From Escherichia coli 042 (GTDB taxonomy: Bacteria; Pseudomonadota; Gammaproteobacteria; Enterobacterales; Enterobacteriaceae), in NCBI RefSeq assembly GCF_000027125.1, contig NC_017626.1: DNA of 64,000 nucleotides; one strand, written 5' to 3'. Of the stretch, positions 1,593-1,622 are shown piece after piece. Under the pieces are notes generated by a model. The model was not told the origin of the DNA. It ran no database searches and saw nothing but the letters and a program-made list of their open reading frames with translations. Each line of letters starts with the position of its first letter. The stretch's first letter is position 1. A program made the translations under genes and the position numbers.

Positions 1593-1622
1593 TTCTGCAT
1601 GGTTATGCATAACCATGCAGAA
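1593..1622. repeat. Perfect 30-bp palindrome (ttctgcatggttatg/cataaccatgcagaa), likely rhtA terminator hairpin
   Basis: Exact reverse-complement symmetry read from the sequence; lies 9 bp downstream of the rhtA stop and is followed on the minus strand by a U-rich stretch. Confidence 0.6.

Follow-up and report, generated by a model that had tools for sequence, protein, structure and literature searches.

We propose that the perfect 30-bp palindrome between rhtA and dps in Escherichia coli 042 is the 3' part of the rhtA mRNA. It lies at positions 1593-1622 of the 64,000-nucleotide stretch of DNA that was analysed (the window, to which all positions refer unless K-12 is named), and on the minus strand its RNA would form a 13-bp stem-loop that creates and protects the end of the transcript, as a weak intrinsic terminator backed by Rho. 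We give this reading as a whole a probability of about 0.5. The palindrome is in itself an ordinary feature, which is already documented both as the mapped rhtA 3' end and as a "30 bp inverted repeat" upstream of dps.

The palindrome is composed of two 15-nt arms, TTCTGCATGGTTATG|CATAACCATGCAGAA, which are 100% complementary with a 0-nt spacer, so the comparison of the arms bears out the sequence-only reading of this DNA, in which an exact reverse-complement palindrome had been noticed at 1593-1622. No other perfect palindrome without a spacer in the 64-kb window is as long; the runner-up has arms of 8 nt, and when the window was shuffled 60 times the longest zero-spacer arms reached 6-11 nt, versus 15 nt in the real palindrome. 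By a naive chance expectation, arms of 15 nt would be found 64000 x 4^-15 times, or about 6e-5 per window. The palindrome is real, far beyond chance and functional. The same 30-bp sequence is present with no differences at 849172-849201 of E. coli K-12 MG1655 (the window coordinate is the K-12 MG1655 coordinate minus 847579). Moreover, of 5426 complete E. coli genomes, 5420 carry it at a single locus, and 5407 of these 5420 match it with 100% identity; the two "places" per genome given by this search are the two strands of one palindrome. A search for the dyad elsewhere, which had been suggested with the sequence-only reading, yielded no further locus, since no near-identical second dyad was found in any of the 5420 E. 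coli genomes, nor was there a second copy within the window with up to 3 mismatches allowed. Because the palindrome is single-copy both in the window and in the E. coli genomes, a dispersed repeat was rejected. An Rfam scan of 1300-2900 with E values up to 10 returned noise only (mir-19, whose 17 bits are below its gathering score of 50).

The window opens with the glnH-dps-rhtA-ompX region of E. coli, in which glnH (ending at 424), dps and rhtA are all on the minus strand and ompX is next on the plus strand. According to open reading frames and annotation, dps occupies 829-1332 and rhtA, which encodes a threonine/homoserine exporter, 1631-2518, with its TAA stop codon at 1631-1633, and both proteins are 100% identical to their K-12 counterparts. 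The palindrome is separated from the rhtA stop codon by the spacer AUUUACAC (1623-1630, minus strand) of 8 nt, within 1 nt of the 9 bp first noted, and from the dps ATG at 1332 by 260 nt, in agreement with the approximately 260 bp given earlier. SMRT-Cappable-seq described b0813 (rhtA) as its own monocistronic unit with a transcription start site (TSS) at K-12 850130, which converts to window 2551, and located the dps TSS at K-12 848950 (PMC6131387), which is window 1371; the dps promoter has the -10 hexamer TATACT. Since the dps TSS is at 1371, the palindrome is placed at -222 to -251 from the dps start. Two short minus-strand open reading frames overlapping the palindrome, 1506-1616 and 1502-1600, were dismissed with no formal test; one of them begins within the stable stem.

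Some other traits of this region deserve mention. No complete E. coli genome is more than 99.1% identical to the window over its first 6 kb. A cluster of substitutions relative to K-12 and AST215 is seen in an A/T-rich stretch at 1458-1481, about -87 to -110 from the dps TSS, and because of these substitutions the 308-bp rhtA-dps spacer is at best 97.7% identical to that of complete E. coli genomes. The position equivalent to yliM of K-12, a small protein gene of 21 codons, is 2753-2818 on the plus strand, between rhtA and ompX, as inferred from the K-12 annotation by coordinate transfer. Elsewhere in the window, perfect inverted repeats with arms of 12-13 nt and loops of 4-5 nt are found at 9984-10014, 53895-53925 and 29103-29130, and these are probably further terminator hairpins.

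When transcribed from the rhtA strand, the palindrome folds into a 13-bp stem (1593-1605 with 1610-1622) closed by the 4-nt loop UGCA (1606-1609). The energy of this fold is -18.7 kcal/mol, versus -5.6 ± 2.2 kcal/mol for shuffled sequences (z -5.85), and none of 200 shuffles was equally stable. The hairpin begins 8 nt past the rhtA stop codon, 5 of its 13 pairs are G-C (38%) and the two lowest pairs are U-A. A 13-bp stem derived from a 30-bp exact palindrome is unusual, and the earlier impression that the element is longer and more perfect than typical terminators was correct. Past the palindrome the rhtA strand reads UUUCUCGCUACUUUUCC; the minus-strand sequence quoted for this stretch in the sequence-only reading, TTTCTCGCTACTTTTCC, was confirmed as given. 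The 3' tail UUUCUCGCU spans 1584-1592, and as a U-tract the E. coli tail, UUUCUCGC, has 4 U in 8, three of them proximal. A scan for consensus terminators, which needs at least 5 T in 8, did not call the site because the tail has 4, not 5, U in 8. The 5' flank of the hairpin is U-rich, not A-rich. The 60 nt past the hairpin (1533-1592, minus strand) contain 13 C, 4 G and 26 U in the window, and this C-rich, G-poor, pyrimidine-rich tract is, by its base counts, a candidate Rho-utilisation region. The opposite strand folds equally well through symmetry, yet it has neither a U-rich tail nor a gene upstream; termination on the plus strand was rejected because the tail there, GUGUAAAU, is not U-rich and there is no plus-strand gene upstream.

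The rhtA transcript has been mapped to an end just beyond this stem, where a terminator hairpin is expected to leave it. The rhtA entry of Supplementary Data 3 of the TRS study (Nat Commun 2023, PMC10687069) is a "Primary" 3' terminus on the minus strand, with a peak at K-12 849163-849170 (window 1584-1591) and the dominant position at 849165. This position converts to window 1586, the G of UUUCUCG, 7 nt beyond the stem, which gives rhtA a 3' UTR of 45-46 nt. In the sequence-only reading, mapped rhtA 3' ends away from the hairpin had been named as the observation that would speak against a terminator; the end given in this entry, 849165, is instead 7 nt past the stem. The fold given by the authors for the rhtA end is the same hairpin, also with -18.7 kcal/mol, and the entry is significant in two of three LB libraries, its assignment to the LB RNAtag-seq sheet being deduced from the layout of the file. 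According to these authors, the class of primary 3' termini has 96% precision (PMC10687069). For the rhtA row of this supplement, the "Fold seq" column appears to begin about 50 nt before the dominant position and to end 1 nt after it, versus 40/10 in the legend, and "U-tract seq", on the minus strand, from 10 nt upstream to 20 nt downstream (PMC10687069). Both spans were deduced from the rhtA row. The mog row of the same file fits these spans if the mog stop codon is where we take it to be.

The rows of this table for neighbouring genes are also informative about other hairpins of the region. The dps terminator, at about 755-800 on the minus strand, reads GCGGCUUCCUGACAGGAGGCCG and then UUUUGUUUUG, a canonical contrast to the rhtA tail, and the dps row gives a 3' terminus at K-12 848334, or window 755 (PMC10687069). 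Between the convergent ompX and opgE, a perfect 12-nt inverted repeat at 3402-3431, AAAAAATCCGCC...GGCGGATTTTTT, is a textbook bidirectional intrinsic terminator, and the opgE row has a 3' terminus at K-12 850979, or window 3400 (PMC10687069). The supplements examined from two other 3'-end studies, Adams 2021 and TERMITe, have no rhtA entry. Our literature search returned nothing relevant on an explicit rhtA terminator, on its sequence, or on rhtA with ProQ, Hfq or bicyclomycin, and no Rho-inhibition, exonuclease-mutant or in vitro termination data for the rhtA site were found in the literature searched.

The hairpin is conserved well beyond E. coli, and its conservation is of the compensatory kind. 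Among 80 species-level Enterobacteriaceae loci, fetched with an RhtA query, nearly all have dps next after rhtA, across a spacer of about 300 bp, and in nearly all of them the first helix past the rhtA stop is a hairpin of 10-16 pairs that starts about 7-13 nt after the stop, with stems as different as UAUUCAGUAUGAGA in Kosakonia, UAUUUACCGUGG in Buttiauxella and UAUUCCGCAUCG in Atlantibacter. The first 70 nt past the rhtA stop have z < -3 in 64 of 79 loci. In a MAFFT alignment of 69 distinct orthologous hairpins, for which the segments were picked as the best local hairpin per species, a choice that favours pairing, standard pairs occupy 87.6% of the cells versus 71.3% with partners shuffled, and the covariation score is 0.52 versus 0.20 (0 of 500 shuffles reach 0.52). 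In the same set, changes on both sides are seen in 14 of the 15 pairs, and moving the partners by 1-3 columns as a control gave covariation scores of 0.07-0.17. The position-matched alignment and these slid controls argue that the covariation signal is real. RNAalifold independently predicted 11 core pairs, all of them with compensatory changes.

The base of the stem behaves in a different way from its upper part. In 65 of the 69 distinct orthologues the two lowest core pairs are U-A, and extension to UAUU...AAUA is frequent, whereas covariation is free in the upper stem. This base, seen within window 1589-1626 on the minus strand (columns 8-12 and 39-43 of alignment A2), is kept across Enterobacteriaceae, usually with no U run, and is the mirror image of the canonical terminator A-tract/U-tract. 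It could conceivably mark a distinct sequence-dependent 3' element, such as a site for an RNA-binding protein or a ribonuclease, or a dual-use DNA form coupling rhtA termination to dps promoter topology, but we hold either to be improbable. In the genome labelled Citrobacter sp. JGM124 (L073, 3877-3990), a rhtA homologue of 72% identity has no dps downstream, and the open reading frames directly past it were taken as glnHPQ genes from their sizes; a 9-bp hairpin is found there 15 nt past the rhtA stop despite the missing dps.

The pattern of substitutions also tells which strand is under selection. When one base of a Watson-Crick pair undergoes a transition, the strand considered is left with G·U or with A·C. 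RNA accepts the former as a pair, whereas both mismatches (as DNA, G·T and A·C) count as defects in a cruciform or in a symmetric site for a protein. Fitch parsimony on a neighbour-joining tree built from the rhtA and dps coding sequences gave 51 switches from one Watson-Crick pair to another. On the rhtA-sense strand, the 12 core pairs show 25 gains of G·U versus 6 of A·C (binomial p = 0.0009), and all 15 pairs show 32 versus 12 (p = 0.004). Taken together, covariation and the asymmetry of G·U over A·C show that selection is on the rhtA-sense RNA hairpin and not on the DNA dyad. The pattern is not that of a symmetric dyad, as the sequence of the half-sites and their spacing vary between genera and the constraint on the strands is unequal. 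The main proposal of the sequence-only reading, that the palindrome is the rhtA terminator, is in this way supported by the mapped 3' end, the covariation and the strand-specific tolerance of G·U. It must be taken into account, however, that "terminator" may here stand for weak intrinsic termination, for a protective stem-loop associated with Rho, or for the two together, because the U-tract is weak and is absent in most other genera.

Perfect symmetry has a narrower distribution than the hairpin. The perfect palindrome is found only in Escherichia species (alignment A2; compared loci L004, L003 and L010), with 30 bp in E. coli, 32 bp in E. albertii and 34 bp in the genome at locus L003, and the 32-bp version of E. 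albertii carries a compensatory double change from C-G to U-A. Citrobacter and Salmonella have GGUU-UGCAU-AAYC, with a non-palindromic loop of 5-7 nt, and one inserted A converts this form into GGUUAUGCAUAACC, which suggests that a quasipalindrome-correcting event may be behind the perfect dyad. Other genera have non-palindromic loops of 3-9 nt and different stem sequences. From these alignments, it is the hairpin that is the conserved feature, with the exact dyad as a lineage detail.

According to the reading that we prefer, RNA polymerase would transcribe the hairpin and then the UUUCUCG tail, and the hairpin with its three proximal U would stop part of the polymerases by intrinsic termination 7 nt past the stem. 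Those going further would be halted by Rho, for which the adjoining C-rich, G-poor tract would be the loading site, and 3'-5' exonucleases would cut the tails of their transcripts back to the hairpin. The outcome would be a monocistronic rhtA mRNA with a 3' UTR of 45-46 nt and little transcription into the dps regulatory region. We infer both the insulation of dps and the contribution of each mode of termination, and the hairpin is best read as an exonuclease barrier whether termination is intrinsic or Rho-backed. Features of intrinsic terminators are the stable stem-loop just past the gene and the in vivo RNA 3' end 7 nt beyond the stem in the TRS entry, where about 7-9 nt is expected; features of the Rho-associated type are the stable 3' hairpin with low U, no A-tract and C-over-G downstream. 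In most other genera the tail begins with AAUAU and has no U run, while the dps terminators of the same loci usually start with UUUU. Counting T after the last G-C pair, as counting after the full minimum free energy stem is confounded by A-tract/U-tract pairing, rhtA and dps tails differ modestly in total T (median 4 versus 4, p = 0.016), and the clear contrast is between the AAU and UUUU starts. Because the U run is missing in most other genera, canonical intrinsic termination cannot be the conserved function. In 73 of 79 loci C is more frequent than G over the 60 nt past the hairpin, and for the pooled loci the C:G ratio is 2.0 there versus 1.25 in the remaining spacer. This C-rich, G-poor composition and the poor U-tract outside E. 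coli make Rho termination with exonuclease trimming a serious alternative or partner to intrinsic termination, and a steady-state 3' end 7 nt past the stem is equally expected from trimming. It is possible, and nearly as likely as a weak intrinsic terminator with Rho, that the hairpin is only protective, with Rho ending rhtA transcription within or past the C-rich, G-poor tract, trimming back to the stem by PNPase and RNase II, and no meaningful intrinsic termination. Such a purely Rho-dependent mode matches the class described by Dar and Sorek in 2018, whose stable stem-loops are low in U, lack an A-tract upstream, have more C than G downstream and are commoner in weakly expressed genes; these authors proposed that terminators shift gradually from one mode to the other when their U content changes (PMC6061677). 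It is also consistent with a hairpin kept without a U-tract in most genera, with the U-rich 5' flank without A-tract, the A-U base and G-C-poor stem, and the C over G bias both in the window (13 C versus 4 G) and across the loci. However, the E. coli tail starts with UUU and the mapped end is exactly 7 nt off the stem, as in intrinsic terminators, and the skew of C over G could stem from constraints on the dps upstream region.

Readings that place the function in the DNA are much less probable than a weak intrinsic terminator backed by Rho. The idea that the palindrome is kept mainly as a DNA palindrome or cruciform contacted by Dps or another architectural protein, so that topology and autoregulation at the dps promoter, located about 235 bp further down, would depend on this contact, has published data on its side: the 30-bp inverted repeat is inside one of two in vitro Dps footprints of the dps regulatory region (Antipov 2017, PMC5553809, building on the DNase I footprints of Melekhov 2015, PMC4433220). 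The DNase I contact region extends 216-281 bp upstream of the dps promoter, or window 1587-1652; inverted repeats are enriched among Dps ChIP-seq sites, and in vitro the protein binds branched DNA (PMC5553809, PMC4433220). The exactness of the palindrome in 5407 of the 5420 complete E. coli genomes is also in line with a role as DNA structure. Nevertheless, the footprints required a 5-10-fold molar excess of a protein of little sequence preference (PMC4433220), the perfect dyad is restricted to Escherichia while loop lengths and stem sequences vary elsewhere, and a hairpin persists past rhtA in L073, where dps is missing. Moreover, a cruciform or a symmetric site should penalise G·T and A·C equally, and the gains on the rhtA-sense strand are 25 versus 6. 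Dps may well contact the repeat in vitro, its binding may be opportunistic, and contact is compatible with a role in RNA, but as the primary function of the element it is unlikely. The sequence-only reading had also offered a protein-binding site as a secondary idea; the published in vitro Dps footprint agrees with it, but the comparative data oppose protein binding as what maintains the element.

An operator for a sequence-specific dimeric transcription factor regulating dps or rhtA is less likely still, and we consider it very improbable. A perfect 15-bp dyad is the classic operator form, and within E. coli its sequence is nearly invariant. However, the half-sites keep neither their sequence nor their spacing between genera, although a stem is kept, the mismatches that are tolerated are asymmetric between strands, and an operator would be poorly placed 3' of rhtA, at -222 to -251 relative to the start of dps. 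There is also no second near-identical dyad in the 5420 E. coli genomes, and we know of no E. coli operator consensus that matches this one.

With the palindrome taken as the end of rhtA, its hairpin sets the 3' boundary of the transcript and has little importance beyond annotation. It accounts for the separation of rhtA and dps into two units in spite of their common orientation and a distance of only 300 bp, and it provides a worked example of a terminator hairpin kept by compensatory change while the U-tract comes and goes. It also advises caution, as the published Dps footprint on the repeat need not mirror the function that maintains it. For threonine/homoserine production strains based on rhtA, the hairpin is the native mRNA-stabilising 3' end.

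Several known systems resemble this element in part. It shares with E. coli intrinsic terminators a stem-loop just past the stop codon, a 3' end 7 nt off the stem, a tail starting with U and a position at the end of a monocistronic unit ahead of the next promoter. In contrast to them, its stem is long and perfect but A/U-rich, with U-A at the base and a U-rich 5' flank, and its tail has 4 U in 8, a U run that is missing outside E. coli. Rho-dependent protective stem-loops have in common with it a stable hairpin, low U, no A-tract, C-over-G downstream and a weakly expressed gene, and differ in that the E. coli rhtA hairpin is followed by three proximal U, so that it may be mixed or transitional; as in the mode-switching terminators of Dar and Sorek, the hairpin is conserved while the U content drifts (PMC6061677). 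As for Dps contact sites at inverted repeats, this very repeat was reported in a footprint (PMC4433220, PMC5553809), but selection here is on one RNA strand and its structure rather than on a DNA dyad. Finally, like REP/BIME elements it is an extragenic palindrome 3' of a gene, a kind of element that can stabilise the upstream mRNA, but unlike them it is single-copy in every E. coli genome examined and has no REP consensus and no Rfam match.
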